This document shows, one piece after another, positions 7,350 to 26,439 of a stretch of 64,000 nt of DNA. The stretch lies in assembly GCA_963761335.1 (NCBI GenBank), contig CAVXGR010000018.1, positions 576,001 to 640,000 of the forward strand, in the 5' to 3' direction. The DNA is from an uncultured delta proteobacterium. GTDB taxonomy: Bacteria; Desulfobacterota; Binatia; HRBIN30; BPIQ01. Positions within the stretch are counted from its first letter, which is position 1. The number at the start of each line of letters is the position of its first letter. A program made the position numbers and the translations under genes. The notes below the pieces were generated by a model. The model had not been told where the DNA came from, did no database searches, and worked only from the letters and a program-made list of their open reading frames with translations.

Positions 7350-8354
7350 TCACAGCCCGTACCACTTTCGCCGCAGGGGCGTCAACTTGGGGTTTGTCGT
7401 CCGGGTGCTGGTCGTCTGCGCCCGACGCGCCGGGTAGGCTCCCGGGTGACCCTCCCGAAAGCGGCGGCCCAGTGGGTCGTCGCGTCGCGGCTGAGCGATT
7501 CCGGTCGCCCGGCTGGTCGGGGTCATCCGTTCGCCGGCGCCATTGATCCACGATCTCTCGGAGCTCTGCAGCTCGCGCAGCAGCTGCGGCCGCTGGCGCA
7601 GAAGGGCGATTGCCTCGGGCTGCGGAAGAGCGCGGTGGAGCAGGGCTCGGTACCTCTGCAGACGGGCGCGCCACTGTGCCGGCGAGAGGGTGGTCCTGGT
7701 CGGAGGCGGGCAGGGCACCTGCTGGCCGAGCAGCATGATCATCAAACCCTCGTAGTTGAAAGCCGGGTCGCCCGTCGCACAGCGACGATTGCCGCTTTCG
7801 ACCCACGGGCCACAGGTGGAGTAGTGATCGAGCAGGGGCTGCAGGCCGGATACATCCACCGAAGCGCGACAGTCTCGCCAGAAGCGCGTCTCGCTCTTGC
7901 GGTTGAACTTGTAATGCACGCTGAGAAACCACCGCAGGTAGTCCCAGTGGGCGCCGAGCGCCTCGTTGGCGAAGGAGCGGTCGGACGGCCGATTTCCCGA
8001 CTGCAGCCCGCCGATGAGATAGGCGATCTCGACAATGACCATGTGGAGGGCGGTGGACTCGAGCGGCTCGACGAACCCGTAGGCATTGCCCAGGGCAACC
8101 GTGTTGCCCTTCCAGAAATCCCGGTGGCGGCCGCTGCGGAACTGCGGGGGGACCCGATAGGAGAATGAGTACCTGCCCGGCAGACCCCAATCGAACTTGA
8201 TGCCCAGTTTCCAGGTGGGCCGCACCTCGCGGTACAGGTCGACGATATCGATGCCGAGCTGCCGGTGTAGAAATGGCGGCATCAGGGTGGTGGTTGCTTC
8301 GCCGACGCCGACAACCTTTCGAGCCTCAAGATCTCGACGGTCCTCCGGCATCAT
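7350..8354 (-). pseudogene. Tryptophan-halogenase-family (FAD-dependent) gene with two in-frame internal deletions
   Basis: GVGEAT, TWKLGIKFDW, FRSGR..FWKGN.VALGNAYGFVEPLESTALH and FLSVHY...FWR motifs are present. The GxGxxG FAD-binding segment and the central region (including WxWxIP) are absent. Length is about 334 aa. Confidence 0.8.
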
Positions 8355-9816
8355 GAATCCCTTCACTGATGTCTCGAGGTGCTGTGGTTGCCCAGCGCGC
8401 CAGGATTTCGGCCGTGCGCGAGTCGGTCTCGTTCGCCAGGAGCTCGAACAGTCGCCGCGAGACGGCCATGTGCTCCTTGCACTCGAATGAATGCGGGCGC
8501 TGCCCGAAGAGATCTCCCCGGGTGGCAAAGCTGTGCACGGGGTCGATGCCGCAGAAGGGCTTGTTCCAGCAGTCGGCGCACATCGGCTGCGCGTCGAGGA
8601 GGGAAGCCGCGGCAATGGCGCGCACGGTGGGGTGCTGCAGCACCTCGGCCAGGGTCAGGGTGCGCACATCGCCGATCGCGAAGATCGGATCGCCGGTGAA
8701 GTCGATCAGCCGTGCCTCCTCGCAGGGAAAGACGCGTCCATCGGCATCGTAGGCGAGCTCGGACGTTCCAGCTGCGGCTGGAGACTGGATGTCGCACACT
8801 CCAGGGTCTTCCGAGGTGAGGATGCGAGTCGCGAAGATCCGTGCGGTACCCTCGACGATGTCGACGCCCTGGCGGTTGAGCTCGAGGATGTAATCCAGGG
8901 CGCGCCGATAGAAGTCGAGGTACTCCTCAGCGGAGTAGCCGATCTCCGACCAGACGTCGCCGGAGATGCCGAGAGGATTGAGAGGTCGCAGGTAGATCGC
9001 GCCGAGTCCCCGGGCCACGTACTCGTCCACCAGCCCTTGCGGTTCCTCGAGGGTTCGCCGAGTTACATTGGCGCGCGCCTCGATCGCCCGGATGCGAGAA
9101 TCCTGGCCGCTCTCCACAGACTGGCGCTGAAAGTAATCGATCCAGCGAATCACCTCGGCATGGGTGCTGCCGCCGATCCACCGGCGATTCCAATCGTGAA
9201 TGCCCGCCGGTCCGTCGAGATCCGTCCGCACGCGGACGTCGTTGGCGATCAGCCACTCGGCAGACTCCGCGGTCATGGCGGTGAGATTGGTCACCAGTCG
9301 GAAGGCCAGCGTCTTGCCGGCCGTCTGCATGTTGCGCGAGCGCGCCAGATCCAGCAGATGGCGCAGCACGTCGAAGCTCGCCAGGGGCTCGCCGTCGCCG
9401 GCGCGGAGCTCGAAGGTGATCGACGGCGAAGTGCTCTGCAGAGCTACCTCGGCCACTTGCGCGGCAGTCTCCGGGCTCATGTCGACGGCTGTTCCTTCGC
9501 CGCTCCGGCGAAGGTTGACGACGTGCAGATGCGGCCCGCGACCGACGTGGCGATTGCGCCGCGCCACCCGGTCGGCGAAGGCGTCGAGGTCGAGCCCGTC
9601 GCGCAGGAAGCCCATGCGCTTGAACTCCTCAAACCGGGAATGACCTTCGGCAACGCGTCCGGCGAGCAGCTCATCCAGCTCCGCCTCGCTCAGAAGCGCC
9701 CAGTCGCCGGCGTCGTTGGTGACCAGGATCTTGCCGGCGACGCGTCCCCAGCGGAAGAATCCGAGCCGGTCCTCAGCGAGATCCTGGCGCGACAGCGTCA
9801 GGCTGCGTCGGTCCAC
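8326..9816 (-). CDS. HxsB-like radical SAM/SPASM protein lacking the CxxxCxxC motif
   Basis: Colinear with HxsB at 23771 (ILVTNDAGDW, GPHLH, LVTNLT, LDGP, YLDFYRRALDYILELNRQG, CADC.NKPFCG), but the cluster-binding motif is missing. Confidence 0.85.
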   Translation of the reverse strand: MDRRSLTLSRQDLAEDRLGFFRWGRVAGKILVTNDAGDWALLSEAELDELLAGRVAEGHSRFEEFKRMGFLRDGLDLDAFADRVARRNRHVGRGPHLHVVNLRRSGEGTAVDMSPETAAQVAEVALQSTSPSITFELRAGDGEPLASFDVLRHLLDLARSRNMQTAGKTLAFRLVTNLTAMTAESAEWLIANDVRVRTDLDGPAGIHDWNRRWIGGSTHAEVIRWIDYFQRQSVESGQDSRIRAIEARANVTRRTLEEPQGLVDEYVARGLGAIYLRPLNPLGISGDVWSEIGYSAEEYLDFYRRALDYILELNRQGVDIVEGTARIFATRILTSEDPGVCDIQSPAAAGTSELAYDADGRVFPCEEARLIDFTGDPIFAIGDVRTLTLAEVLQHPTVRAIAAASLLDAQPMCADCWNKPFCGIDPVHSFATRGDLFGQRPHSFECKEHMAVSRRLFELLANETDSRTAEILARWATTAPRDISEGIHDAGGPSRS

Positions 9817-10055
9817 TAACTCTCCTCCGCCAGAGCCGCCTGACGCATTCGCGAAATGGTCTCGTGCAAGACGTGATTGCAGAAGGCGTTGGCTACCATC
9901 TCGGCATCATCTTCGGCAACGCCGGAGATGATGGTCTCGATGGCGTCGGCGGCGGCAGTCACTTCGATCTGGGCGTGCTCGGCGTAGGCCGCCGCGGCGG
10001 CGTCGACGGCCTCAGGCAGGTATAGCGATCGGTCGAAGGCGATGCGCTTGGTCAT
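9816..10055 (-). CDS. Small HxsD-like protein (79 aa)
   Basis: FDRSLYLPEAVDAAAAAY...ANAFCNHVL. Paralogue of 23533..23778, and translationally coupled to its neighbours. Confidence 0.75.
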   Translation of the reverse strand: MTKRIAFDRSLYLPEAVDAAAAAYAEHAQIEVTAAADAIETIISGVAEDDAEMVANAFCNHVLHETISRMRQAALAEES

Positions 10056-10540
10056 CACTCCGTTTCCGGATCCTTCTTCGGCCCGGGCTCCTCGGTGGCG
10101 CCGCCGTGCTTCTCCTCCCATGGGACCATGATCTCCAGCGGGTCCTCGAGCAGCTCTTCGGCCTCCAGCTCGGCCAGCAGGTCGTCGACGGAGGGTGCCG
10201 AGGCGGCGGCGCGAAGCGCAGCCGCCGTGTAGTAGTCGCGAATATGCGTGGTCGCCTGGGAGAGGCGCAGGCGGGTGGCCTGCGACAGAAGCTCGTTGGC
10301 GAACTCACCGGCGAGGGCGTCCAGCTCCGCGGGTGTTGCAGGGGTCCGCGAGGTCAGCCTCGCGGTCACCACTTGCGGCTTCGGCCTCGACAGATAGACG
10401 AAGCACTTCTCGACGAACAGGTAGCAGGCGCCGTAGATGGCGTCGAGAGGATAGATGCTCTCGTCGACCTCGAAGGAGATCTGGTCAGGTCCCAGAGAGA
10501 AGCCGAGGCGAGACTGCTGCTCGGCGTCGGTCGCGGACAC
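10055..10540 (-). CDS. hxsD: His-Xaa-Ser system protein HxsD
   Basis: VDESIYPLDAIYGACYLF...GEFANELLSQATR...EDPLEIMVPWEEK, the HxsD pattern; sits next to an hxsB-like gene. Confidence 0.85.
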   Translation of the reverse strand: MSATDAEQQSRLGFSLGPDQISFEVDESIYPLDAIYGACYLFVEKCFVYLSRPKPQVVTARLTSRTPATPAELDALAGEFANELLSQATRLRLSQATTHIRDYYTAAALRAAASAPSVDDLLAELEAEELLEDPLEIMVPWEEKHGGATEEPGPKKDPETE

Positions 10541-10544
10541 TGCG

Positions 10545-11201
10545 CTACCTCAACCTCCGATCCACGGGACCCGAGAACAGGCGCAGGCGCTCCGACTGCG
10601 GCATCAGCGCCGCCATAAGAGGCCTGTTCTTCCACTTGGTTTCGTTGCGGGCGAGCACGTGGGCCAAGCGCGCAACCGCTTGGGCCAATCCTTCTTCCGT
10701 GGGCAGGTCTCCTCGTCCGCCATTCATGACCACGAGATCGAGACCCTTCGTGTGGACCAAGCCCTGCGGACGCCCATCGTTGCGGCAGAGATGGACGCGG
10801 TGTTCTCGACCCCGCGGATTCACCAGGGTCAGCACGCAGGTGCCGTCAACGACTCCGGTCAGGCCTGCGACGCGCCACCCATATGCCACCAATGATCCCT
10901 TGGCGAGTGGCCGAAGCAGCTCCCAGGGAGGCGGCGCGCCGAGGGTGCTCGCCGGCCCGGCGTCGACGACAGCGGGCTGCGGATCTACGGCCTTTCGAGG
11001 GTCGCCGACTGGCTCTGGAGCTGGAACGATCGCCTCCGTGGCGGCGGTCGCCGCTTGGATGGATCCCTCTTGATCCAGGGCAGAGCCGGTGACTGGCTCG
11101 GCGCGGCGTGCTGAGGCAAAGCTGGTCCGTGCCAGCCCCGCGGCCCACATCATGGCCGTACCGGCTGCGAGCCTTCCGACCAAATCACGTCGCGACAGCA
11201 T
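10545..11201 (-). CDS. Tat-exported 'GW'-domain protein (copy 2)
   Basis: GGAGG RBS upstream of ATG 11201; MLSRRDLVGRLAAG twin-arginine signal; close paralogue of 13956..14543. Confidence 0.8.
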   Translation of the reverse strand: MLSRRDLVGRLAAGTAMMWAAGLARTSFASARRAEPVTGSALDQEGSIQAATAATEAIVPAPEPVGDPRKAVDPQPAVVDAGPASTLGAPPPWELLRPLAKGSLVAYGWRVAGLTGVVDGTCVLTLVNPRGREHRVHLCRNDGRPQGLVHTKGLDLVVMNGGRGDLPTEEGLAQAVARLAHVLARNETKWKNRPLMAALMPQSERLRLFSGPVDRRLR

Positions 11202-11270
11202 GCCGCACCTCCTTCCGTTCATCCAATATTTCTCCTGCTACCACAGGCATTTTACGTTCGCAACGCGACA

Positions 11271-13325
11271 TCAGTCGTTCTTGTCGAGGAACCTGTCGCC
11301 CTCGTTCTTCGTCGCCGGGGCCGTGTAGTCGGCAGTCCAGCACTCACCGTTGCTGTTGACGAGCTGAACCGTCATCATCGGATCCTGGTTGAGCGGGATC
11401 AGCGGCTCGAGGCTGGCGAAGTCGAGGTTCAGACCCTTCGCCAGGACGACGAGCTTGGCGCTGGCGCTCCCCGCCTTCAGGCGGATGGTCTTGATGCCGC
11501 GCTGGGTCGAGTCCCTGTCCTTGTAGCGGAAGCCACTGACTCCGGTCGCCTTCCAGCACGGATGAGAGCCGCAGGTGCTGCTGCCCGGAATACCGGCGGT
11601 CAGCAAGCGGATCGGCGTGCCCGACGAGTAGTCGTATACGCAGAAGGAGTAGAAGGTCGAGGTGTTGACCGGGTCGCCGAAGTCGGGCGGCGAGGTGACG
11701 TCCCCGTACGATCGCACCGCCGACCAGGTCCACTTCAGCAGGTCCCTCTTGTCCGGGGACTTGTCGCGGATCAGCAGCAGCGACTTCTTCGGCTGTATCG
11801 TGATGTGGCACAGGTTCGCCGGCAGCGGCGTCAGGGCGCAGGGGTTGGGTGTCGGGGTCGCCGTGGGCGTCGGACTCGGAGTGGCGGTCGGGGTATCCGT
11901 CGGGGTCACGGTCGGCGTATTGGTCGGCGTGCTGGTCGGCGTATCCGTCGGCGTCACGGTCGGCGTATCCGTCGGCGTGCTGGTCGGCGTGTTGGTCGGC
12001 GTGCTGGTCGGCGTATCCGTCGGCGTGCTGGTCGGCGTTTCCGTCGGCGTGCTGGTCGGCGTATTCGTCGGCGTATTCGTCGGGGTGTTGGTCGGGGTGT
12101 TGGTCGGCGTGCTCGTCGGCGTGCTCGTCGGCGTATCCGTCGGCGTGCTCGTCGGCGTGTTGGTCGGCGTGCTCGTCGGCGTGCTCGTCGGCGTGCTCGT
12201 CGGCGTGCTCGTGGACGTCGGCGTATTGGTCGGGGTGCTCGTCGGTGTCCGCGTCGGCGTTTCCGTCGGCGTATCGGTCGGCGTGCTCGTCGGCGTCACC
12301 GTCGGCGTATTGGTGCTGGTCGGTGTCCTCGTCGGGGTGCTCGTGGACGTCGGCGTGTTGGTCGGCGTGCTCGTCGGCGTGCTCGTCGGCGTACTCGTCG
12401 GCGTGTTGGTTGGCGTGCGGGTCGGTGTCTGCGTCGGCGTGTTGGTCACCGTCGGCGTGCGTGTCGGGGTGCTGGTCGGCGTCTGCGTCGGCGTGCAGGC
12501 CGGGTTGAAATCGGCCGGGCACGAGGCGCTCGAGCCCGTGCAGGTCTCGGCGACGTCACAGGCGCCGGCGTCGGGCCGGCAGACCTGACCGCTGCCGCGG
12601 AAGGTGCAGCTGCTGGTGCAGCAAGAGGTCGAGCTGCCGTTCGAGCCGCCGAGGTCGCACTGCTCGGCGCTGTTGTTCGTGTCGGTCACGCCGTCGCCGC
12701 AGTCCGAGTAGTAGAAGGCGACGTCGACGCTGCTGTAGTCGGAGGCGCCTGACGACGGTGTGTGTGTGTTGTTGTAGTTGGTCAGGGCGTAGTCGAGAGA
12801 GAAGGTCGGGGCGCTGGCTTTGACATCGACCCGGAACGTGAAGGAGGTGCCGCTGGTGAGCTGGAAGAGGTAGCGGATGTCGCCATAGGTGCCGCTGTCG
12901 GCGGGGCTGCCGCCGGCGGCGATCGTCGATGCGGAGCCGGAGACTCGGGTGATGACCAGCTGGTTGCTCACCGTTTGCGACCCGTTGATCTGGTCGGCGA
13001 CGCTGGTCGAGCTGGTGTAGGTGATCGACGTGGAGTTGCTGGTCGAGTACTTGAAGATGGCGCTCCCCGAGGGGGCGGAGCCCGTCATGGTGTTGCCGTT
13101 CACATTCGAGGCCGCCCGGATGCCGAAGTACACGTTGGAGTGCGAGCCGAGGCTCACTCCGGAGCAGGTGACCGTGGCGCCGCCGCTGGAGCTGGGCACG
13201 CCGCTGACGCTGCAGGAGCCGCCCCCTGGGAGGCTGTACGTCGGGCCGCCGGTGATCACCAGCGCCGAGGCGCTGCTGGCGACGCCGAATAGAATGAGCG
13301 CCGCAAGGATTGCACCACGCTGCAT
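11271..13325 (-). CDS. Secreted protein: Ser/Thr-rich beta domain, myxobacterial Cys-rich/disintegrin-like module, long Pro/Thr linker, conserved C-terminal domain
   Basis: GGAGG RBS, ATG 13325, signal peptide (…SSASA), CGDGVTD..EQCD...CCTSSC...[13 protein letters not shown] and about 215 aa of TP-rich repeats. Confidence 0.85.
11847..12494 (-). repeat. Intragenic degenerate 12-bp tandem repeat encoding (T-P-T-S/N/D)n
   Basis: Repeated gtcggcgtgctc / gtcggcgtattg / gtcggcgtatcc units on the + strand. Confidence 0.9.
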
Positions 13326-13468
13326 CGTCCACCTCCGCCGTGGGTTGTGAAGCGAGCTCGAAGAGATGCGCACCGCAACGGAATCCGCGGCTGATCTTCC
13401 CCCGTTTGGCCGAAATAACGTCATCAAGGCGCCTCCGCTAGCGCTGCGGTGCTGTTTGCACCAGGGTG

Positions 13469-13858
13469 TCACCACGATCCGTGCGAGCCGTGACTGCCAT
13501 GAGACCCGTGACTCCCGTGGGACCCGTGGCTGCCGTGCGAGCCGTGGCTTCCATGTGAACCGTGGCTTCCATGCGAGCCGTGGCTGCCGTGCGAGCCGTG
13601 GCTGCCGTGTGAGCCATGGCTGCCGTGCGAGCCGTGGCTGCCGTGCGAGCCGTGGCTGCCGTGCGAGCCGTGCGAGGCGTGCGACATGTGCTGCGCCAGC
13701 ATCATGCTTTCATTGCTGGGGTCGGTCCGCAGGGCCTGAGCCGCTGCCGCAGGATCGACGGCACCGACCGGTTTCACCGCCTGGCGGGCCTCGTCGCGGC
13801 TGAGAAAATCCAATGGCGTCTTCCGCAATGAGGGAAGCGCGTTCTTCTTCTGGCTCAT
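13469..13858 (-). CDS. hxsA: His-Xaa-Ser repeat RiPP precursor (HxsA-type): 56-aa leader + HMS-HAS-(HGS)22-W
   Basis: 129-aa ORF with a GAAGGAGG RBS upstream. 24 tandem HxS triplets with synonymous codon variation; located among hxsB/hxsD homologues. Confidence 0.92.
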
Positions 13859-13955
13859 TGTCCCTCCTTCACCGTGGGCGCATCATCGACGCGATACGCC
13901 CCCCTATCTCGATTCGTAGCCACAACCGACCCCGGCCATTGCGCCGTGGAGACCC

Positions 13956-14543
13956 TCATCGCAACCTCGCCCCACTGGCAGCGGCAAATCGCTCGAGGCG
14001 CTCCGCGTGGGACAACAGCGCCGAGGCGAGCTGCCGCTGTCGGTTCGCCTCGTTGGCCGCGAGCACGCGCCCCACAGCGGCCACCGCCTGGGCCAATCCC
14101 TCTTCCGTGGGTAGATCTCCTCTGCCGCCGTTCATCACCACCAGATCGAATCGTCGGGTATGCACGAGACCTTGGGGCCGACCGTCGTTGCGGCAGATGT
14201 GCACGCGGTGCGAGCGCCCGCGCCGGTTCTCCAGCGCCAGCACGCAGGAGCCGTCTTCCTCTCCGCTCAAGCCAGCCACCCGCCAGCCATGGGCCACTGC
14301 GGACCCGATTCCCAGCGGCTGCAACAGATCCAAGGGTGGGCTGCTCGGCGGCGCGGGCTCGGCCGCGGACATGGCGGCCTCCGCTGCCGGAGCTGTGGCC
14401 GACTGCTCTTCACCGCTCTGCGCCAATGCGGAAACACCAATATCGTCGCGAGCGGATTTCGCCTCCGCCCGCCCGATGTTGGCAGACCACGCCACGGCAG
14501 CACCGGCCGCCAGCTTTCCGACGAACGCCCGTCGGGACAGCAT
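13956..14543 (-). CDS. Tat-exported 'GW'-domain protein (copy 1)
   Basis: ATG 14543, MLSRRAFVGKLAAG twin-arginine signal; shares CRNDGRPQGLVHT...DLVVMNGGRGDLPTEEGLAQAV with 10545..11201. Confidence 0.8.
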   Translation of the reverse strand: MLSRRAFVGKLAAGAAVAWSANIGRAEAKSARDDIGVSALAQSGEEQSATAPAAEAAMSAAEPAPPSSPPLDLLQPLGIGSAVAHGWRVAGLSGEEDGSCVLALENRRGRSHRVHICRNDGRPQGLVHTRRFDLVVMNGGRGDLPTEEGLAQAVAAVGRVLAANEANRQRQLASALLSHAERLERFAAASGARLR

Positions 14544-14915
14544 GCAGTTTTCCCCCCCTACAACTAGACAGGAACTAAAGGTTCGTAACGGGCGTATCAC
14601 AAGGCCGACGGACGAGTAAAGAAAAATTTTCGCGCGACCCCGGGAATTCTGTCGTCCGTCGAGAATGCGCCTCGGCGTGGCGCACCGCTGTCCGCCGGCC
14701 CTTTGCGTTCGAAAAAAATCTGGCGTCTCTTCAGGTGTCGTGATACGCGTTTCCTCTGACACGAGACGAATCTCTTACGTCTGTTGACAAGTGCGCGATA
14801 GAAAGGGATTCAGCAGGGGGGGCAAGAATCGCGCGAAGGACGGCGTACGGCTCTCGGCCGGCGACCGCGAACGAAGCAGCAGGACTGATCCCATTCGTGC
14901 AGAGAATCTTCTTTG

Positions 14916-16769
14916 ATGCACACTGATCCCTCGATCGACGCGGTTGGTGGTCTGACCCAGTTGAGCGGCGAGGCCGCTCGACGTCTGCTCTCACCCAGCC
15001 GCGGGGCGGAGGTGGATCTGCGCCTCTCGTTGGTGCGCCAGCGCGCCATTCTGCCCTGGCGGTTTGTGCCGCCCGATGCTCGCGACGATCTGCGGTCGAG
15101 CGAGGTGATCGACGCTGCCCGGGCGGCCGGTGCACATGCGGGAGCCTTTCTCATTGGCGGCGGGGATCCCCTGCGGCGTCCCGATCTGTGGGATCTGCTG
15201 GCGGAGTTGGTGCGCCTCAGGCCGAATGATCTCGGACTCTGCATTTCCGGTCGCGGGCTGACGGCGCCGGTGATCGAGCGCCTGCGCGCCGCCGGCGTGC
15301 GGCGGCTGCACGTCCCCTTTCACTGCGCTCGGCAAGATGCCCACGATTGGTTGGTCGGCCAGCCGGGCGCCTTGAAGATGGCTCATCGCGCCATCCGCGC
15401 CGCTGCCGAAGCGGAGCTGCCGGTGGTCGCCGAGATCGTCCTGACGCGACCGACGGTGTTGCATCTGGCCGAGACGGTCGAGGTGCTGTCCCGCATCGGC
15501 GCCGGCGCCGTCTGTGTCCGGCGGCTGGCGGCGGAGGACACCGACGGCACCGCCTTCGTGCCGCTCTCTCCGCGCCTGTCCTTGGTGGGCGAGAGCCTCG
15601 AGCAGGCGGCGGCGGTGGCCCTGCGGCGCCGCCTACGGCTGCGTCTGCGCGACCTGCCCCTGTGTGTCGCGCCGCGGCTCCGGCGACTGTTCGCCGCCGC
15701 CGAGAGCGAGGCATGGGTGATGGCCGACGGCACCCTGAGCCGGCGCGCCGCGGCGGCACTGGGGTGCCCCGACTGCCCCGGACCTCCGCGCTGCGCCGGC
15801 GCGCCGAGCGACTACACGGCGCGCTTCGGCTGGGAGGAGTTCGCCGACGTGAGCGTCGCCGCGGCGCGGCTCAGAGAGAACGTCGAGGAGCAGCGGGCGC
15901 CGCATCTGTCGGCACCGATGGTCTTCGCCTGGCGCGGTCCACATCGAGTGCGCTGCGACGCCTGCGGCGACGGGGCGGAGGCGCAGTCCGGATACGAATC
16001 GACGCGAGCGGTGCGCGCCAGGCTGGTGCAGGCGGCGCGCTATCGGCCGTCGCTGCTGCGCTTGGTGGGGGCGGATCTTCTCGCCCACCCGCAGGCGGCG
16101 GCGCTGATCTTCGATGCGGTGCGGCTGTTCCCGCGCGTCGAGGTCGTCGGGGAGGCCAGCGCCGTGGTCGAATGGTCCGATCTCGACCTGCGCCGCTTGA
16201 AGGACCTGAAGCGCGTCGACGTCCCATTGTATGGGCCCGATGCGGCGACCCACGACTCCCACTGCGGTATTCCCGGAGCCTTCGCTGCGATGCTGCGCGG
16301 CGTCCAGCGTCTGGGCGCCCAGGAGATCCGGGTTGGCGCCTACGCCGTCCTTCATGACGCGCATCTGCTCGAGCGGTTCGCCGCAGCTTGGGACGCCGGT
16401 AGCTTGCCGGGCGAGCCCCGCTTTCGCCTCTCGGCCCGCGGCGCGTCTCTCGATGAGCTGGCGGAGGCGGCGCGCCGTTTGCCGAGCGGCCCGGCGCGCG
16501 CCGCGGTGGCGGCGCTCTTGCCCCGCTGCCTGTGGGACGATTCCGCCGCCGGCAGCGGCGGTCAGGTCCTGTTGGTTCAACGGCCGGAGCCGCAGCGGGT
16601 CGTCCACTGTGGCAGGAGCACTTCCTATCATTCATGCGGATCGGATCCGATCGGGGATTTTGAGACATGCCGTGAGGGCGCCGGTGCGTGCGCCGGCTCG
16701 GGATGTGTCGGAACCGCTGTCGGGTGGCGGACTGCGGCGAGGTCAGAGCGATGGAACGTGAGGATCTGA
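14916..16769 (+). CDS. Tandem double radical SAM-like protein, both domains lacking CxxxCxxC
   Basis: Domain 1 has GGGDPLRRPDL, VPFH..RQDAHD.LVGQPGA and DLPLC. Domain 2 has VGADLLAHP and VPLYGPDAATHDSHCGIPGAF. Only CDAC remains at the motif position of domain 2. Confidence 0.75.
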   Translation: MHTDPSIDAVGGLTQLSGEAARRLLSPSRGAEVDLRLSLVRQRAILPWRFVPPDARDDLRSSEVIDAARAAGAHAGAFLIGGGDPLRRPDLWDLLAELVRLRPNDLGLCISGRGLTAPVIERLRAAGVRRLHVPFHCARQDAHDWLVGQPGALKMAHRAIRAAAEAELPVVAEIVLTRPTVLHLAETVEVLSRIGAGAVCVRRLAAEDTDGTAFVPLSPRLSLVGESLEQAAAVALRRRLRLRLRDLPLCVAPRLRRLFAAAESEAWVMADGTLSRRAAAALGCPDCPGPPRCAGAPSDYTARFGWEEFADVSVAAARLRENVEEQRAPHLSAPMVFAWRGPHRVRCDACGDGAEAQSGYESTRAVRARLVQAARYRPSLLRLVGADLLAHPQAAALIFDAVRLFPRVEVVGEASAVVEWSDLDLRRLKDLKRVDVPLYGPDAATHDSHCGIPGAFAAMLRGVQRLGAQEIRVGAYAVLHDAHLLERFAAAWDAGSLPGEPRFRLSARGASLDELAEAARRLPSGPARAAVAALLPRCLWDDSAAGSGGQVLLVQRPEPQRVVHCGRSTSYHSCGSDPIGDFETCREGAGACAGSGCVGTAVGWRTAARSERWNVRI

Positions 16770-18631
16770 AGACGAGAATGCTGGCGCGCGAGCGCGTCGC
16801 CAATGTCCGCAAGCACTGGGTGCGCCTGGTGACCGCTTGTAACAGCCGCTGTATCTTCTGTCTGGACACCGACACGCCGCGCAACGTGTACATCCCCGAG
16901 GACGAGGTGCGGCGCGAGATTCTGCGCGGGCGGGAGCAGCTCAAGGCCGACAAGGTGATCCTCTCCGGGGGAGAGGGCTCGATCCATCCGAAGTTCGTCG
17001 ACTTCGTCGCCTACGCCAAGGAGGTCGGCTACAACCGCGTGCAGACGGTCACCAACGGCGTGATGTTCGCCCGCCGCGACTTCTATGCCGCGGCGGTGGG
17101 CGCCGGGCTCGGCGAGATCACCTTCAGCCTGCACGGGCACACGGCCGAGCTGCACGACCGTCTCACGGGGACGCCGGGCGCCTTCCGCAAGCTCATCAAA
17201 GGAATGGTGCGCGCCGTGCGCGAGGGGCGGATCATCGTCAACGTCGACGTCTGCATCAACAAGCAGAACGTCGCTTACATCGACCAGATCGTCGATCTCT
17301 GCCTCTCGGTGGGGGTGCACGAGTTCGACCTGCTGCACGTCATTCCCCAGGGGGTGGCCTTCGAGAACCGCAACGACCTCTTCTACGATCCGGTCGAGTA
17401 CCTGCCGCGCCTGCAGAAGGTGTTTCGTCTGAACCGCCACCCGAATGTGGTGGTGTGGACGAACCGCTTTCCGGTGGAGTTCCTCGAGGGGCTGGAGGAT
17501 CTCATTCAGGATCCGCACAAGATGCTCGACGAGGTCAACGGCCGCCGCTTCCAGGTCCGCCGCTACCTGGACGAAGGAGTGCCCCTGGAGTGCCGAGAGA
17601 AAGAGCGCTGCCAGTACTGCTTCATCGAGCCCTTCTGCAACACCGCCGATCGAGTCATCGAGCGGCAGAACCGCGCCAGCTGGGAGGTGTGGTGGATCGG
17701 CGAGCCCGGAGAGGCGCAGCGGGCGGAGATCGCCGCGCTGACCCCCGAGCAGCTGCCCTTCGGATGCGGCTACGTCGGCGTCGAGGTCGACGATCTGGCC
17801 GATCTCGAGGGGCTGGCGGTGTCCCCCGAGATCGGCATCTACGCCAAGGCGAGGCAGGTTTCGCGCCTCGTCGACCGCAAGGCGGTGTCCAATCCTCTCC
17901 TCGTCTGCGTTGCCGAAGCGGAGGCACTCGAGGTTCTGCTGTCGGCCGGCGAGATTCCGCCGGGCGTCGAGATCGAGATCGAGCTCAACCGGCAGACGGC
18001 GCCCTGGCTTCTGGCGCACCGCGAGCGCCTCGCCGGGGTTCTCTCCCGCCTGCGGCTCCATCAGCCGAGCCACGAGTTCCTGAAAGACGCCGTCGACAAC
18101 GACGTGCGCAATCCCGCCGCGTTCTTCGCCCAGCTCGCCCTGCCGGTGCGGGTCAGCGGACTCCCCGCCTGTCTGGCGCCGGGAGCGCAGCTGAGCGAGG
18201 CGCCCAAGATTCTGCACAGGACACTCTTCGACGCCGAGACCGGGCGCGTGGCGATCCGCGAGCTGGCGCGCGAGCACGTGGTGCGCGGTTACTGGGGCAA
18301 GTCGGTTCGCTGCCGAGACTGCGTGGTGAACGACCGCTGCGACGGTGCCCACATCAACTTCCTCCGCGATCAGGGATTCGCGCAGCTGGATCCTCTGCGT
18401 CAGGGCGAATGGGCCGAGGCGGCGGCGGCGCAGATGCTGCGCCTGCGACCCGAGCCGCCGGCGCGGCTGCGCGACGGACGGCCGAGCCTTCCGGTGGCGC
18501 CGAGCCTGCCCGGGTTCGCCCCGCCACGGCCGGCTCCCGTCGAGCCGCTGATCGAGCTCGGGCAGCGCGTGCGCGAGGAGCGCGAGCGGCGCCGCCTGCG
18601 CGCCCACCCGGAGGCTCCGCCGCCGGCATAA
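16751..18631 (+). CDS. Radical SAM protein (HxsC-like) with long C-terminal extension and Cys-rich tail
   Basis: CNSRCIFC, SGGEG, TVTNG and FSLHGH..ELHD.LT..PGAF; internal CxxxxxCxxC and terminal CRDCxxxxxC. Confidence 0.9.
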   Translation: MEREDLKTRMLARERVANVRKHWVRLVTACNSRCIFCLDTDTPRNVYIPEDEVRREILRGREQLKADKVILSGGEGSIHPKFVDFVAYAKEVGYNRVQTVTNGVMFARRDFYAAAVGAGLGEITFSLHGHTAELHDRLTGTPGAFRKLIKGMVRAVREGRIIVNVDVCINKQNVAYIDQIVDLCLSVGVHEFDLLHVIPQGVAFENRNDLFYDPVEYLPRLQKVFRLNRHPNVVVWTNRFPVEFLEGLEDLIQDPHKMLDEVNGRRFQVRRYLDEGVPLECREKERCQYCFIEPFCNTADRVIERQNRASWEVWWIGEPGEAQRAEIAALTPEQLPFGCGYVGVEVDDLADLEGLAVSPEIGIYAKARQVSRLVDRKAVSNPLLVCVAEAEALEVLLSAGEIPPGVEIEIELNRQTAPWLLAHRERLAGVLSRLRLHQPSHEFLKDAVDNDVRNPAAFFAQLALPVRVSGLPACLAPGAQLSEAPKILHRTLFDAETGRVAIRELAREHVVRGYWGKSVRCRDCVVNDRCDGAHINFLRDQGFAQLDPLRQGEWAEAAAAQMLRLRPEPPARLRDGRPSLPVAPSLPGFAPPRPAPVEPLIELGQRVREERERRRLRAHPEAPPPA

Positions 18632-18653: not shown

Positions 18654-19691
18654 ATGGCGAATCTGGGCTATCTGCAGCTCACCCGCAATTGCTATCAGAA
18701 GTGCCAGTTCTGTAGTAATCCGCCGACCGGGGTGCATCTCAACGAGGAGGAGATGCGCGCCAACATCGACCGCCTGGTCGAGCTCGGCTACGACGGCGTG
18801 ATCCTCACCGGCGGCGAGCCGAGCATCTCGGAGCTGCTCTTGCCGGCGCTGGCCTACGCCCGCGAGCGCGACCTCTTCAGCCGCATGATCACCAACGGTC
18901 AGAGGCTCGCCGACCGGGACTTCTTCCGCCGCTGCGTCGACGCCGGGCTGACCCACATCCACGTGTCCCTGCACAGCTATCGGCGCGAGGTCCACGACTT
19001 CATCACCCAGTACCGCGGCGCCTGGGATCTCCTGGTGGAGTGTCTGAGCCACGTGCCGGAGATGGGCATCACCTGCGACATCAACACGGTGATCAACGTG
19101 TACAACTGCGATCACCTCCACGAGAACGTGCAGTGGATCTGCGAGAACTTCCCGTTCATCCGGCACTTCGTGTGGAACAACATGGACCCCGACGGCAATC
19201 GCGCCGAGGAGAATCCCGACTGCATTCCCCGGCACTACGAGTTCCAGGTGTCGCTGGAGCGCGCCATGGAGTACCTGGTGAGCAGCGGGCGGACCTTCCG
19301 CGCCGAGCGCGTGCCGCTGTGCTACATGCGCCACTTCGCCTGGGCCTCCACCGAGGCCCGCAAGATCATCAAGGAGGAGGAGCGCTGCATCAAGTTCCTC
19401 GATGCCAAGGGCTTCATCCACCAGAAGGAGTTTCTGCACGGCAAGGGCACCGCCTGCGACGTCTGTCGCTTCGACACGATCTGCGCGGGCATGTTCTCGA
19501 TGGCCAAGACCTACGACGAGCGCGAGCTGTCGCCGATCTTCGACGATCCGCTCGATGTGATCGTCCAGGTGCTGGGACGGAGGCCGTCCCCGGACCTGCT
19601 CGAGAGACTGCAGAAGCGGCGCGGCCGGCGCTCGAAGACGGAGCAGCCGTCGGTGGAAAAGAGGGAACAGGCGCTCTCGCGGGCGCTGTAG
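18654..19691 (+). CDS. Radical SAM protein (HxsC-like) with twitch-type C-terminal Cys
   Basis: CYQKCQFC, TGGEP, ITNG, VPLCYM and CDVCxxxxxC. Confidence 0.9.
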   Translation: MANLGYLQLTRNCYQKCQFCSNPPTGVHLNEEEMRANIDRLVELGYDGVILTGGEPSISELLLPALAYARERDLFSRMITNGQRLADRDFFRRCVDAGLTHIHVSLHSYRREVHDFITQYRGAWDLLVECLSHVPEMGITCDINTVINVYNCDHLHENVQWICENFPFIRHFVWNNMDPDGNRAEENPDCIPRHYEFQVSLERAMEYLVSSGRTFRAERVPLCYMRHFAWASTEARKIIKEEERCIKFLDAKGFIHQKEFLHGKGTACDVCRFDTICAGMFSMAKTYDERELSPIFDDPLDVIVQVLGRRPSPDLLERLQKRRGRRSKTEQPSVEKREQALSRAL

Positions 19692-19694
19692 GCC

Positions 19695-22007
19695 ATGCCC
19701 CGCTTGCTCTTCGTCAACCCGCCCCTCGTCCTCGACGAGGACTTCATCGACTACCCGTACTTCGCCAATCACGGACTGCTCGCCTGCGCCGGGATGGCGG
19801 CGCGCGCCGGGGCGCAGGTGGACGTCTACGACGCCTTCGCGCAGCCCGCCTCGGGGCGCCACCGGCGGGCCGCAGGCGGCTTCGTTCTCGGCGTCGGGCA
19901 CGCCGACTTCATCGCCGGCCTGCCCGAGGGCGAGCCCGACGTGGTGGTGCTCGGCGCCTCCGTCTTCCTGCGCATCGAGGCGGCACACGCGGAGACGCGG
20001 GCGCTGATCGCGGCGCTCCGCCGGCGGTTCCCGGACGCCGTGCTGCTGCTCGCCGACGGCTACGTGGGCGGCCAGCACTACATGGACTACGATGGCGTAC
20101 GGGTGCTGGCGGAGTACGAGGAGCTGGATGCGATCCTCAAGTACCCCGGCGAGCGCCTCTTCGGCGACCCCGCGTATCTCGCCACACTCCGCGGCGCCAG
20201 AAGGGTACTGACGGAGGCAGGGGAGCGCGGCGCCGATCCCCTCGCATCGTTTTATATGCTCGATGCCATCGATCTGGGGAGCTTCGATCGCTTTCTCGAT
20301 CGCTGCTTCGCCGACGGGCTGTGGCAGGACACCTTCGGTGTCGGCAGCGGCACCCGCTCCTTTCTCACCAGCATGGGCTGCCCGCATCGCTGCATCTTCT
20401 GCACCAGCAATCCCGGCTGGCGGCGCAGCGGCCGCAAGCTCTACCAGCCGATCCCGCTGGCCCGCCTGAAGCACTGGGCCTTCCTGCTGCGCACCGCCTT
20501 CGGGGCGCGCAAGCTCATCGTTCTCGACGAGATGGTGAACGTGCGCCCGGACTTCGAGGCGCTGCTCACCGCCTTCAACGACCTCGATCTCTCCTACGAT
20601 TTCCCCAACGGCATGCGCGCCGACCATCTCAGCCGCGAGGCCGTCGCCCTCATGCGGGGACGCGTCAGCGTGGTCAGCATCTCGGCGGAGAGCGCCACGC
20701 AGGAGGATCTCGACGGCCCCATCGGCAAGGGCCAGAAGCTCGACGCCATCTTTCGGGCCGCCGCCTGGTGTCAGGAGATCGGTGTGCCCTTGATGATCCA
20801 CTACATCATCGGCTTTCCGTGGGAGACCCCGGCGCACATCACCGCGACCCTGGAGATGGCATGGGACCTCTATGAGCGCTACGGCGCCTGGCCCTCGATG
20901 CAGTTCGCGACGCCGATCCGCGGCACCGCGCTGCACGAGCAGTGCGCCTCGCTCGGGCTGATACCGCCGGAAGGCATCGATCTCAAGGACGGGGCTCTCT
21001 TCCAGCACCGCCCGTGCTACGAGCCGCCGCACTGCCCTCCCGGCTACGTCGCCAAGGCGCGCGCCGCCTTCGACATGAAGATGGCCGCCCGCGAGTCCCG
21101 CAAGCTGATCGTCAACATCACCTACAAGTGCGCCAACCGCTGCGTCTTCTGCGCCACCGGCGACCGCATCTCGGCGGCGCTCGACTGGGAGAAGATCGAG
21201 GGGATCCTCCGCCAGCATCGCCAGGAGGGGACGGATCTTCTCGACATCGACGGCGGCGAGCCGACCCTGCACCCGCGACTCCTCGACGCCGTCGCCCTGG
21301 CGCGGGATCTCGGCTACCGCGCCATCAACGTCACCAGCAACGGTCGCCTGCTGCGCGATCCGGCGGTCGCTCGCGGCCTTCTCGAGAGCGGCATCACGCA
21401 TCTGCTGATCTCGCTGCACGGGGCCACTGCCGCCGTGCACGACGCCGCGACCGATACGCCGGGAAGCTTCGAGCAGACGGTTGCCGGCATCGACAACGTC
21501 ATGGCCATGCGTCCGCCGCACGTCGACACGGGCATGAACGTCACCATCGTGCGCGACAACGTCGATCAGCTGATGCCGCTCGCCGCCCTGGCGGTGGAGA
21601 AGGGTTTTGCCAAGATCAACTTTCAGTTCACCACGCCGTTCGGCCGCGCCTACGAGGACGTGGTGCCGCCTCTCGAGGAGGCGGCGCGTGCGGTGATGCG
21701 GGTCATCGACCGCTACGCGGGCGAGATTCAGATCCACGTGATCAACGCCCAGTTCTGCGCCTTCCCCGGCTACGAGCAGTACGTCGTCGGCGATCTGCAG
21801 AAGCTCGGCCGCACCATGATCTTCGCCGCCGATCCGCGCTTTCCGGAGCAGGTGAACCTGTACCAGTGGCTGGGGGCCCGTCGCGAGAAGCGCGCCGTCT
21901 GCGGCCAGTGCCCATGGACGACCGCGTGCGAGGGCTTCCAGGTCTTCGCCCAGGAGAAGCCCGATATGCGCGTCGAGCGCGCCCGACCGAGCGTCGCGGT
22001 GGCCTGA
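19695..22007 (+). CDS. Fusion of B12-binding radical SAM (class B methyltransferase-like) and a second HxsC-like radical SAM domain
   Basis: N-terminal LLFVNPP cobalamin-binding-type domain; TSMGCPHRCIFC, YIIGFPWET and TPIRGT.L; then CANRCVFC, GGEPTLHP, SLHG and terminal CxxCxxxxxC. Confidence 0.88.
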   Translation: MPRLLFVNPPLVLDEDFIDYPYFANHGLLACAGMAARAGAQVDVYDAFAQPASGRHRRAAGGFVLGVGHADFIAGLPEGEPDVVVLGASVFLRIEAAHAETRALIAALRRRFPDAVLLLADGYVGGQHYMDYDGVRVLAEYEELDAILKYPGERLFGDPAYLATLRGARRVLTEAGERGADPLASFYMLDAIDLGSFDRFLDRCFADGLWQDTFGVGSGTRSFLTSMGCPHRCIFCTSNPGWRRSGRKLYQPIPLARLKHWAFLLRTAFGARKLIVLDEMVNVRPDFEALLTAFNDLDLSYDFPNGMRADHLSREAVALMRGRVSVVSISAESATQEDLDGPIGKGQKLDAIFRAAAWCQEIGVPLMIHYIIGFPWETPAHITATLEMAWDLYERYGAWPSMQFATPIRGTALHEQCASLGLIPPEGIDLKDGALFQHRPCYEPPHCPPGYVAKARAAFDMKMAARESRKLIVNITYKCANRCVFCATGDRISAALDWEKIEGILRQHRQEGTDLLDIDGGEPTLHPRLLDAVALARDLGYRAINVTSNGRLLRDPAVARGLLESGITHLLISLHGATAAVHDAATDTPGSFEQTVAGIDNVMAMRPPHVDTGMNVTIVRDNVDQLMPLAALAVEKGFAKINFQFTTPFGRAYEDVVPPLEEAARAVMRVIDRYAGEIQIHVINAQFCAFPGYEQYVVGDLQKLGRTMIFAADPRFPEQVNLYQWLGARREKRAVCGQCPWTTACEGFQVFAQEKPDMRVERARPSVAVA

Positions 22008-22009
22008 GC

Positions 22010-22942
22010 ATGGAGACGATCCAGCTGGGCGGGCAGTGGTTCGACTACGCCGACGTCCTCATCGACGTCATGTTCGGCTACGCCTGCAACGTCCAGTGCG
22101 ACTACTGCTCGATCACCGACGACATGCGCCGGGAGAACATGACGACGGCGTCGGTCATCGCGCAGCTCGCCGAGGCGCGGGCGCGCGGCGCCACCCGGGT
22201 CGCCTTTGGCGGCGGCGAGCCGACCATCCGGCGGAGCCTGTTGCCGCTGGCGCGCTGGTGCCGCGATCGCGGCTATCGCTCGATCAAGGTCGCCTCCAAC
22301 GGGCTCATGTACTCGTATCGCTCCTTCGCGGAGGAGGCGAGCGAGGCGGGCATCAACTCGTTCCACATCTCCTTCATGGCGCACACGCCCGAGCTCTACG
22401 AGAAGATCATGGGAAAGCCGGGGGCGCTGTCGCTGGTGACCGAGGGGCTCCGCAACCTGATCGCCCTGGGCCACAAGCCGGTCGGCGACCTGATCATCAA
22501 GAGCGACACCTGGATGCATCTCGCGGACATCGTCGAGCACTGGGCCGCTCTCGGTGTCGAGACCTTCAACCTGTGGTTGGTGTCGCTGTCGGATCGCAAC
22601 CGCGACAATCTCGACTCGCTGTTGCCGGTCAGCACCATGCGCGAGGGGATCGGCGCTGCCTTCGAGCGCGGCCGGAGCCTCGGGGTCACGGTTCTGTCGC
22701 GCCACATTCCGCGCTGCATGCTCCCCGGGTACGAGGATCAGGTCGCCGATCTGCGCGACGACAAGGTGCTGGTGGTGACGCCGCGCACCTCTTTCGCACT
22801 CTGGGAATCGAAGATCTCTCCCAACACCTACGCCGAGAAGTGCCAGGGCTGCCGCCACCAGCACGGCGTCTGCCTCGGGCTGCGCCAGGACTACCTGGAG
22901 CGCTACGGCGACGCCGAGGTGCAGCCGGAGTACGCGCAATGA
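22010..22942 (+). CDS. Radical SAM protein (HxsC-like) with twitch-type C-terminal Cys
   Basis: ATG 22010; CNVQCDYC, GGGEPT, ASNG, IPRC and CQGC...VCLG...Y...YG..E..P. Confidence 0.9.
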   Translation: METIQLGGQWFDYADVLIDVMFGYACNVQCDYCSITDDMRRENMTTASVIAQLAEARARGATRVAFGGGEPTIRRSLLPLARWCRDRGYRSIKVASNGLMYSYRSFAEEASEAGINSFHISFMAHTPELYEKIMGKPGALSLVTEGLRNLIALGHKPVGDLIIKSDTWMHLADIVEHWAALGVETFNLWLVSLSDRNRDNLDSLLPVSTMREGIGAAFERGRSLGVTVLSRHIPRCMLPGYEDQVADLRDDKVLVVTPRTSFALWESKISPNTYAEKCQGCRHQHGVCLGLRQDYLERYGDAEVQPEYAQ

Positions 22943-23071: not shown

Positions 23072-23527
23072 ATGACTCACACCCGAATAGAAACCCTCGA
23101 CGCGCAGGGGTCGACGCTGACCCTGTCGCTCGACATCGGCCTGTATCCGCGCGACGTGCTCTACGCCGCCGCCTACGTGTTCCTCGACCGCGCCTACGTG
23201 CTCCTCGACCGCGATGGCTCGCGTTTCCTCGTGCACCTGCGGGGCAAGCAGCTCCTCGAAGAGGAGGCTCTGCGGGCCATGGCCGGCGAGTTCGAGAACG
23301 AGCTCCTCGCCCAGGCGCTGCGGCAGCGGGTGACCCGCACCAACCAGAGACTCATCGAGGACATCGCCTCCCTGGCGATCGCCGGTGCCGCCGGCGCCGC
23401 AGTGCACGGCGACGTCGCGTCCGACGACTCCGGGCTGATCGATGTCGACGCCCCCGGCGAGGACGGCTTTCTCGACGACCCCCTGGGCATTGCCGAGCCC
23501 TGGGAGTCCAAGAAGAAGGACGGGTGA
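23072..23527 (+). CDS. hxsD: His-Xaa-Ser system protein HxsD (second copy)
   Basis: LDIGLYPRDVLYAAAYVFLDRAYV...GEFENELLAQALR...LDDPLGIAEPWESK. Confidence 0.88.
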   Translation: MTHTRIETLDAQGSTLTLSLDIGLYPRDVLYAAAYVFLDRAYVLLDRDGSRFLVHLRGKQLLEEEALRAMAGEFENELLAQALRQRVTRTNQRLIEDIASLAIAGAAGAAVHGDVASDDSGLIDVDAPGEDGFLDDPLGIAEPWESKKKDG

Positions 23528-23532
23528 GCGCG

Positions 23533-23778
23533 ATGTCTGCCGGCACCGCCGAGCCCGCCACCGTGAAGCTGCACTGCGCCCTGTACATGCGCGAGGCGAT
23601 CACGGACGCGGCGGCGACCTTTGCCGACTTCGCTTCGTTCGTCCTCCGCCTCGACGGCGATCACTTTCTCGTCGAGGTCAGCGACATCGATGCCGAGGTC
23701 GAGGGCGATGTGGTGGCGGAGTTCTGCAACTTCGCCCTGGCGCACACGGCGATGCGCCGCAAGAGCCAGCATGCTTGA
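23533..23778 (+). CDS. Small HxsD-like protein (second copy)
   Basis: LHCALYMREAITDAAATF...VAEFCNFAL; paralogue of 9816..10055. Alternative GTG start at 23524. Confidence 0.75.
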   Translation: MSAGTAEPATVKLHCALYMREAITDAAATFADFASFVLRLDGDHFLVEVSDIDAEVEGDVVAEFCNFALAHTAMRRKSQHA

Positions 23779-25529: not shown

Positions 25530-26429
25530 TCAGTGTTGCGCGAACTGCTCGAGAATGCGCTCGCGCGGCAGGGCCTTTGCCTTCATGTGCTCCTGTCGTT
25601 CGCGCACCAGGCTCTCGTAGGTCGGCGGCGGCTCGGGATCGCGGTAGAGCACCCCGGTGTAGAGCTCCTTGCCGTAGGTCTGCGCCAGCGCCATCGCCTT
25701 CACCCGGTGGAGCGGCTTGTAGCCGATCTTGGCGAGCGATTTCATCCCCTCGCGATGCGCCTTGAGCTGCCGGTCGGGCTCACCGAAGGTGACGCAGGGC
25801 GACTGCACGTTGACGAAGGCGAAGCCCGGGAAGCGGATCGCCTCCTCGATGATCGCCGCCAGCCCCGGCATGTCGGCGGGTGTCCCCTGGGCCACGAAGT
25901 GGGCACCGTAGCCGAGAACGTAGAGGAGCGGGTTCACCGGATCCTCGAGACTGCCCTCCGGAGAGGTGACCGTGTGGCGACCGCGGGCCGAGGTCGGCGA
26001 CAGCTGCCCCTTGGTGAGGCCGTACGTCTGGTTGTCCATGACGATGTAGGTGAGGTCGATGTTGCGGCGAATCACGTGCGGCAGATGTCCGCCGCCGATC
26101 GAGAAGCCGTCGCCGTCGCCGCCGGCGACCAGGACCAGTAGATCGGGGTTGGCCAGCTTGATGCCCTGGGCGATCGGCAGGGCGCGCCCGTGCACGCTGT
26201 TGAAGCCGTAGGCGGTGGTGTATCCGGGAATGCGGCTCGAGCAGCCGATGCCGGAGACGAAGGCAATCTCGTGAGGCGGCCTGCCGATGTGGGCCAGGGC
26301 GCGGTTCAGGGCCGTGAGCACCCCGAAATCTCCACAGCCCGGGCACCAGATCGGCTTGAGCTCGCTCTTGAAGTCCGACGGGTCGAAGGCCGGGGTCGAG
26401 GGGCAGCTGAGGGCAGTGTTCACGTGCAT
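25530..26429 (-). CDS. korB: 2-oxoacid:ferredoxin oxidoreductase beta subunit
   Basis: WCPGCGDFG, SGIGCSSR, HGRALP.A.G.K, GGDGD TPP-binding motif, NQTYGLTKGQ.SPT and SPCVTF. Confidence 0.93.
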   Translation of the reverse strand: MHVNTALSCPSTPAFDPSDFKSELKPIWCPGCGDFGVLTALNRALAHIGRPPHEIAFVSGIGCSSRIPGYTTAYGFNSVHGRALPIAQGIKLANPDLLVLVAGGDGDGFSIGGGHLPHVIRRNIDLTYIVMDNQTYGLTKGQLSPTSARGRHTVTSPEGSLEDPVNPLLYVLGYGAHFVAQGTPADMPGLAAIIEEAIRFPGFAFVNVQSPCVTFGEPDRQLKAHREGMKSLAKIGYKPLHRVKAMALAQTYGKELYTGVLYRDPEPPPTYESLVRERQEHMKAKALPRERILEQFAQH

Positions 26430-26439
26430 GGTGTCTCCG

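Follow-up and report, generated by a model that had tools for sequence, protein, structure and literature searches.

The stretch analysed here (the window: 64,000 nucleotides (nt), C18:576001-640000 of the genome G000, from the class Binatia) carries a small gene, hxsA4, whose predicted product is a peptide precursor dominated by His-Xaa-Ser triplets. The gene lies on the minus strand at 13469..13858, as an ATG-started open reading frame (ORF) of 129 codons followed by TGA, with a Shine-Dalgarno sequence, AAGGAGG, at 13863..13869 (minus strand), 4 nt upstream of the ATG. Translation yields a leader of 56 residues ending in MMLAQ (13691..13858), followed by a core (13472..13690) of HMS, HAS, 22 repeats of HGS and a terminal Trp, exactly as an earlier note on this DNA had described it; 24 of the 73 core residues are His. 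The leader includes a conserved stretch of 16 residues, seen as invariant alignment columns. A consensus scan of 13200-15000 for promoters and terminators gave no match, and the RNA run X6 contributed two short pieces only over the hxsA4 stretch, with 3-7 differences.

At the DNA level, the 24 triplets are built from 12 distinct 9-nt units. His is encoded by CAC (20) and CAT (4), Gly by GGC (15), GGA (3), GGG (3) and GGT (1), and Ser by TCG (10), AGC (8), TCA (2), AGT (2), TCC (1) and TCT (1), with Ser codons of the TCN and AGY classes alternating along most of the array. The list of variant codons given previously was thus correct, with TCC and TCT as two further Ser codons. A genome-wide search of G000 with the NCBIfam model NF038313 returned two loci above the cut-off, namely the window and a second locus on contig C12. 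The C12 paralogue likewise has 129 residues and the same 24 triplets. In the ungapped alignment of the two cores, 31 of 73 codons differ, all of them synonymously and none non-synonymously, and the pattern of TCN and AGY Ser codons is identical; the leaders differ by 21 synonymous and seven non-synonymous codons. This comparison bears out the suggestion, made from codon variation alone, that selection acts on the protein, and shows the array to be neither a product of chance nor of slippage. On sequence grounds, 13469-13858 (minus strand) is a genuine, conserved precursor gene of the HxsA4 type under purifying selection.

The precursor scores 143.7 bits (E 2.4e-42) against NF038313, 'His-Xaa-Ser repeat protein HxsA4', for which the cut-off is 55; this is so far above the cut-off that its kind must be regarded as already catalogued. 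Against TIGR03979, the model for canonical HxsA, it reaches only 20.7 bits, below the cut-off of 121.65. The NF038313 model spans 93 positions and the window array is longer, so the match falls in two stretches. A literature search found no paper naming HxsA4 or HxsC4, and, among the matches listed for Binatia or Binatota together with radical S-adenosylmethionine (SAM) enzymes or peptides made on the ribosome and modified after translation (RiPPs), none concerned His-Xaa-Ser peptides. HxsA4 is therefore a catalogued family that is known as a database model only.

To place the window array among its relatives, we combined a pattern scan with model searches. The pattern scan, restricted to one genome per species, identified 48 loci, many from Candidatus Binatia, of which 45 hold complete genes and three end inside the array at a contig end. 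All 45 complete relatives share the leader and the HMS-HAS-(HGS)n-W arrangement, with 14-33 triplets, a single QGS triplet in one of them being the only departure. A phylum-wide family search of 401 genomes placed only G000 over the cut-off, and a class-wide model search of 401 genomes detected HxsA4 in 34, in 33 of them over the cut-off. From the places listed by the class-wide search 80 were fetched, leaving out two places in G564, two contig-end fragments, the weak matches in G464 and G694, and second-stretch rows. Of the fetched places, 76 could be parsed; the other four comprise one that runs off its contig, one with a QGS triplet, one that is frameshifted and one that is scrambled. Of 78 parsed copies, 75 have Gln at the last position of the leader. 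The canonical triplet number is 14 in one genome, 15 in two, 16 in seven, 17 in six, 18 in four and 19 in two; higher numbers are 20 (two genomes), 21 (one), 24 (two), 29 (one) and 33 (one). The earlier note had called this array much longer than that of typical HxsA. That holds against canonical HxsA (five repeats in the E. coli protein) but not within HxsA4, where 24 triplets fall in the upper tail of the counts for this class, inside the range and ordinary for the family.

Some copies depart from intact arrays. The frameshifted or scrambled copies L186 (G617:C43:59169-60517), L184 and L187 (both in G519:C6) are near the array length of their genomes, L184 reading as 17 triplets of which four are garbled; these are either pseudogenes or the result of long-read indel errors. 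Among metagenome proteins, P0003, P0004, P0005 and P0007, on contigs of 542-697 bases, join an hxsA4 leader to unrelated sequence, which in one of the four includes a group II intron maturase domain (PF08388). These may be assembly chimeras formed at the repeat, or insertions into hxsA4.

The number of triplets differs between genomes, but the copies within one genome share a single number. For this comparison we used 73 intact canonical copies (leader end ...AQ) from 29 genomes, after excluding three copies with a leader ending ...AL, one that was scrambled and another that retained too little of its leader. Triplet counts were equal in all 75 within-genome pairs of canonical copies, and all 22 multi-copy genomes had a uniform canonical count, whereas shuffling the counts 10,000 times never gave more than seven; G613 would be a twenty-third uniform genome if its QGS triplet is counted. 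When pairs were limited to a leader DNA identity of 0.70-0.90, counts were equal in 49/49 within-genome pairs compared with 338/1991 between-genome pairs. Uniformity is also seen in contiguous assemblies, namely G406 (three contigs; 18, 18 and 18 triplets), G685 (nine contigs; six copies of 16), G519 (ten contigs; four copies of 17) and G478 (ten contigs; 16 and 16). Within the genus g257 there are species with 17, 18 or 19 triplets, each uniform over 2-4 copies. The cores that share a count within a genome are mostly not near-identical: their DNA identity ranges from 0.66 to 1.00 with a median of 0.81, compared with a median of 0.76 for unrelated arrays of equal length. The literature that we searched did not state such a rule. 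This pattern, one number within a genome and different numbers between genomes, suggests that the length of the mature product is under selection.

Several observations weigh against this reading. Genomes that are related cannot count as independent, and the significance taken from the shuffles is therefore too high. Three copies with divergent leaders ending ...LAL, all from the family group f113, stand outside the canonical set: L171 (G598:C402), L185 (G617:C43) and L158 (G625:C85). Two of these break the rule, with 24 triplets against a canonical 29 in G598 and 17 against a canonical 33 and 33 in G617; in G625 the ...LAL copy is the only one parsed. When all intact copies are counted, 22 of 24 multi-copy genomes are uniform, and the ...LAL class was set apart after the fact. 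In addition, an HxsA4 leader is followed by only four triplets and the Trp in two metagenome proteins, whose contigs measure 907 and 1604 bases; they could be genuine short forms or the result of collapsed assembly.

To one side of the gene is a minus-strand module of HxsD, HxsD-like and HxsB-like genes; to the other, a row of radical-SAM genes runs divergently and finishes with a second HxsD and a true HxsB. Nearer to hxsA4 are genes for putative exported proteins. A gene that starts about 45 nt past the hxsA4 stop (11271..13424, minus strand) encodes a predicted secreted partner with a signal-like N-terminus, a conserved N-domain of about 250 residues, a Cys-rich disintegrin-like module (Pfam Disintegrin, 39.4 bits), a Pro/Thr linker and a conserved C-domain. 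Among the fetched loci, 32 carry at least 200 residues of the partner; in 28 of these a homologue starts no farther than 143 nt past the hxsA4 stop, and in the remaining four the best match is elsewhere in the locus. A homologue also follows the C12 copy. The N-domain was modelled with a mean predicted local distance difference test score (pLDDT) of 68, and Foldseek returned no match for it at E <= 0.001. The linker (window 11344-12600) consists of about 260 residues of TPT-like repeats and gives rise to long spurious ORFs of 392, 396, 308 and 219 residues in alternative frames and on the complementary strand.

Upstream of hxsA4, 13956..14762 (minus strand) encodes a protein with a putative twin-arginine translocation (Tat) signal, its alignment containing invariant R-R and C/H/C columns. 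Its start is probably the Met of MLSRRAFVGK, near 14543, and its conserved C-domain is about 125 residues long; tblastn located homologues upstream of hxsA4 in many loci. Searches of Pfam and NCBIfam gave no match to this protein. A second Tat-signal protein (10545..11222, minus strand) is a paralogue of the first by tblastn and alignment, and its C-domain was modelled by AlphaFold2 with a pLDDT above 90. For this confidently modelled fold, a Foldseek search of the PDB gave nothing at E <= 0.001, no ESM Atlas match of at least 0.9 was obtained, and the best VIA-align Z was 5.8, under the usual background.

The minus-strand module continues with HxsD (10055..10540; TIGR03976, 50.5 bits against a cut-off of 50), an HxsD-like protein (9816..10121 as the ORF is listed, its true start probably being internal; NF038315, 58.1 bits against 41) and an HxsB-like SPASM protein (8326..9816) that scores 351.7 bits against TIGR03978, under the cut-off of 370, has SPASM as its only Pfam match and lacks the CxxxCxxC motif. 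When the window proteins were used as tblastn queries, the Tat-protein, HxsD, HxsD-like and HxsB-like module was found in other loci as well. Directly after the HxsB-like gene is a halogenase-like ORF (7350-8615, minus strand). We considered it as a Trp halogenase that modifies the terminal Trp and rejected this, the Pfam match being partial and no counterpart having been found in the 50 loci searched. Its best stretch against PF04820 covers model positions 308-444 of 458, no N-terminal GxGxxG motif is seen as far as the sequence is readable, and it is probably a gene remnant. Farther along, a 386-residue protein at 416-1576 (minus strand), which has no family match, has homologues 48-55% identical in L047 and L055 that lie near the HxsB-like gene on the side away from HxsD. 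In the window this gene lies about 6.7 kilobases from the HxsB-like gene with the halogenase remnant between them, and the intervening stretch may therefore be an insertion.

On the plus strand, the row begins with five radical-SAM or radical-SAM-like genes, here called rS1 to rS5. The first, rS1 (14913..16769), encodes a radical-SAM-like protein of 618 residues without CxxxCxxC, for which HxsC is the third-ranked NCBIfam match and HxsC4 scores 36.8 bits. It is followed by rS2 (16688..18631), which carries CNSRCIFC and is best matched by HxsC4 (96.4 bits) and HxsC, both below cut-off, and by rS3 (18654..19691), with HxsC as its best match at 97.4 bits and HxsC4 at 52.9 bits. The product of rS4 (19695..22007) has two radical-SAM domains, with CPHRCIFC and CANRCVFC, and its C-terminal half is best matched by HxsC4 at 119.9 bits; the best match of rS5 (22010..22942) is HxsC4 at 86.2 bits. 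The row then ends with the second HxsD (23072..23527; TIGR03976, 55.2 bits against 50) and the true HxsB, a radical-SAM/SPASM protein with CNHGCQYC (23621..25321; TIGR03978, 506.1 bits against 370). Altogether it contains six CxxxCxxC motifs, one each in rS2, rS3, rS5 and HxsB and two in rS4, and HxsC or HxsC4 is the best NCBIfam match for four of the five rS proteins, rS2 to rS5. By tblastn, the rS1-rS5 row is found beside hxsA4 in six other loci (L040, L041, L045, L053, L054 and L068) at 56-88% identity, followed by a homologue of the second HxsD in all but L068; no radical-SAM genes were found among the scanned ORFs neighbouring the C12 copy. The motif is absent from all seven relatives of rS1 and from four of five relatives of the HxsB-like protein. 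With this conserved loss, neither resembles a decaying gene; both look like non-catalytic partners that have been kept. Directly past the HxsB gene, 25530-28230 (minus strand) encodes the alpha and beta subunits of a 2-oxoacid:ferredoxin oxidoreductase, with homologues 30-34% identical in L046. That it might be a low-potential electron source for the radical-SAM enzymes is only a thought.

These features are compared most directly with the canonical HXS system, HxsD-HxsB-HxsC-HxsA, which the available sections of PMC13128918 describe from E. coli, Klebsiella and Pseudomonas as an antiphage system, 99.7% of instances being in Pseudomonadota. According to the same source, this four-gene system was shown in 2026 to block phage DNA entry; HxsB, HxsC and HxsD of E. 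coli are all required for processing the N-terminus of HxsA, a +8 dalton (Da) modification at HxS and export, and HxsC binds HxsD. The window resembles it in having HxS repeats, which are the functional motif there, and in the presence of the HxsB and HxsD families, and by analogy radical-SAM maturation would be expected. Measured against the canonical families, the window contains an HxsB and an HxsD but neither an HxsA nor an HxsC. Canonical HxsA has 214 residues, five repeats and a peptidoglycan-binding domain (PMC13128918, in the sections available), whereas the window precursor has 129 residues, 24 triplets and no such domain. The window genes, from class Binatia rather than Pseudomonadota, stand in another order over both strands, with five HxsC-like genes instead of one, two HxsD genes, a motif-less HxsB-like protein and two conserved exported partner proteins. 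With the HxsA4 family as modelled the window shares the leader, the uninterrupted HxS array and the nearby HxsB, HxsD and HxsD-like genes, but its radical-SAM proteins fall below the HxsC4 cut-off (119.9 at best, against 500). The triceptide RiPPs offer a further likeness, His at position 1 of a three-residue motif; their radical-SAM/SPASM enzymes HaaB, HtkB and YhhB link His-C2 to the Cbeta of residue 3 (PMC11499958, in the text available). The window maturases lie outside these cyclophane-synthase families, the true HxsB scoring 52.4 against 445 for YhhB, 53.1 against 425 for AmcB and 58.5 against 450 for DynA, and the portion of PMC11499958 available contained no triceptide with 24 contiguous motifs.

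Taken together, we consider it likely that the gene encodes an HxsA4 precursor that, by analogy with E. coli HxsA, would be modified by the adjoining Hxs-type radical-SAM locus, exported and selected for length. The presence of Hxs-type maturases next to the gene supports the earlier note's proposal of a ribosomal His-Xaa-Ser precursor. In such a pathway the 56-residue leader would dock the peptide on the HxsD and HxsD-like proteins and on the HxsB- and HxsC-like radical-SAM enzymes, which would modify the His-x-Ser triplets successively. The conservation of the final leader residue suggests that the leader would then be cut off after the near-invariant Gln (...LAQ|H). The modified, His-rich core might leave the cytoplasm and act in the cell envelope together with the two proteins encoded next to it, the Tat-exported protein and the large secreted protein with its Cys-rich module and Pro/Thr linker, and the secreted partner may provide in trans the anchoring part that canonical HxsA has in cis. 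A rod of poly-cyclophane, built by the three-residue cross-link chemistry proposed in the earlier note, and the metal-binding peptide that the note gave as an alternative are predicted products only.

This proposal has points against it too. All steps after translation are drawn by analogy from E. coli HxsA, which shares only the HxS motif with the window precursor. None of rS1 to rS5 reaches the cut-off of HxsC4 (NF038332, 500) or HxsC (TIGR03977, 267.9). The hxsA4 leader has no signal peptide, and family scans identified no protease or exporter in the locus. As for the poly-cyclophane rod, the sole Hxs modification measured, in the available part of PMC13128918, is +8 Da on one SHRSS motif and not the -2 Da per triplet expected of a cross-linked core.

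We weighed several other explanations of the array and of its constant length. An assembly artefact or a non-coding repeat would fit the finding that four public runs, examined as short contigs, include none reaching across the array (X1 extends over 13200-13603 with 0-1 differences; the rest end inside it), so that no independent record bridges the repeat, as well as the three pattern-scan loci out of 48 that end within it. However, G000 encodes the same protein at two loci with different synonymous codons, which rules out a non-coding repeat and makes misassembly very unlikely, and the same layout is found in the highly contiguous assemblies G406 (three contigs), G685 (nine), G519 (ten) and G478 (ten); we give this explanation almost no weight. 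The main rival is that the equal counts arose neutrally, as a side effect of gene conversion between the hxsA4 copies of a genome or of their recent duplication. Several genomes, such as G685 and G479, do hold identical or near-identical copies, and the mean leader identity is higher within genomes (0.85) than between them (0.76). In G000 itself the two leaders are sisters in the leader DNA tree, with a support of 95 in the Shimodaira-Hasegawa-like approximate likelihood ratio test (SH-aLRT), whereas the partner genes fall into different strongly supported clades, and joining them costs 139 log-likelihood units (p = 9.6e-07 in the approximately unbiased test, for a group that was named after the tree had been seen). 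Since the leaders are sisters and the partner genes are not, the equal count in G000 may date from gene conversion, and its two copies were probably homogenised in this way at some time, a further point against selection as the cause; since then the leaders have come to differ by 19% and the cores by 14%, with no indel. Against a neutral origin, arrays within a genome are near the baseline for unrelated arrays (medians of 0.81 and 0.76) and yet show no indel in 75 pairs, and tandem arrays usually change their unit number faster than their bases. The partner N-domain tree, built from the 30 cassettes that have at least 200 adjacent residues, covers 12 multi-cassette genomes, and in nine of them a genome's cassettes are distributed over different supported clades. 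In JAUIGL (18 and 18 triplets) and JANQHZ (17 and 17) the count follows the genome even though the leader and partner trees both pair copies across genomes (L065 with L069; L068 with L070 and L072, or with L067), the support for these pairs in the short leader tree being only 90-91. On balance we lean towards selection for equal length, and regard neutral conversion as appreciably less probable, though still a serious contender.

Other readings concern the product. The peptide could be chiefly metal-binding, as a metallophore or a periplasmic metal buffer whose ligand set the radical-SAM enzymes would shape; the 24 His in 73 core residues, and the invariant Cys/His/Cys columns of the Tat-exported partner, would suit this. 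However, the genes scanned at 416-29334 included no metal transporter, no TonB receptor and no metal regulator, and metal binding gives no obvious need for a fixed, genome-wide length, so that we consider this unlikely. Alternatively, the (Gly-Ser-His)n core could form a collagen-like triple helix or another in-register oligomer, for which copies would need equal length, and genomes do hold 2-6 copies of equal length. Like bacterial collagen-like Gly-X-Y proteins, the core has Gly at every third residue; Pfam Collagen (PF01391; 39.3 bits against a cut-off of 27.2) is the only Pfam match on the precursor, and the Scl1/Scl2 models match weakly (38-41 bits against cut-offs of 325-400). Unlike those proteins, the precursor lacks a trimerisation domain and an LPXTG motif, and its core is devoid of Pro and other imino acids, which, on host-guest data for the stability of collagen, would count against a triple helix. 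A Pfam Collagen match can also be compositional, as the resemblance here probably is. This reading appears quite improbable, even more so than metal binding, and a modified precursor selected for its length still accounts best for the observations.

The precursor is thus a further member of the catalogued HxsA4 family, and the main new result is that its repeat number follows the genome. This constancy, together with the pairing of hxsA4 with two exported proteins, is worth following up. Because HxsA4 is almost pure substrate, with 24 motifs in a 73-residue core behind a clean leader, and is accompanied by a conserved enzyme set, it should be a good system for studying Hxs chemistry. We also put forward, tentatively and as a possibility that we would not yet favour, that the triplet number is a selected, genome-specific length maintained even across old, separately evolving cassettes, and that the mature peptide is a length-defined element of the cell envelope. 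The count itself changes from one species to the next, in one genus by single triplets. If this reading holds, the peptide, stiffened by radical-SAM enzymes, could be a spacer or ruler, or a subunit that assembles in register with the secreted protein, rather than a diffusible natural product. The rule of a single count within each genome argues that the length of the product matters, and thereby offers a handle on its function.

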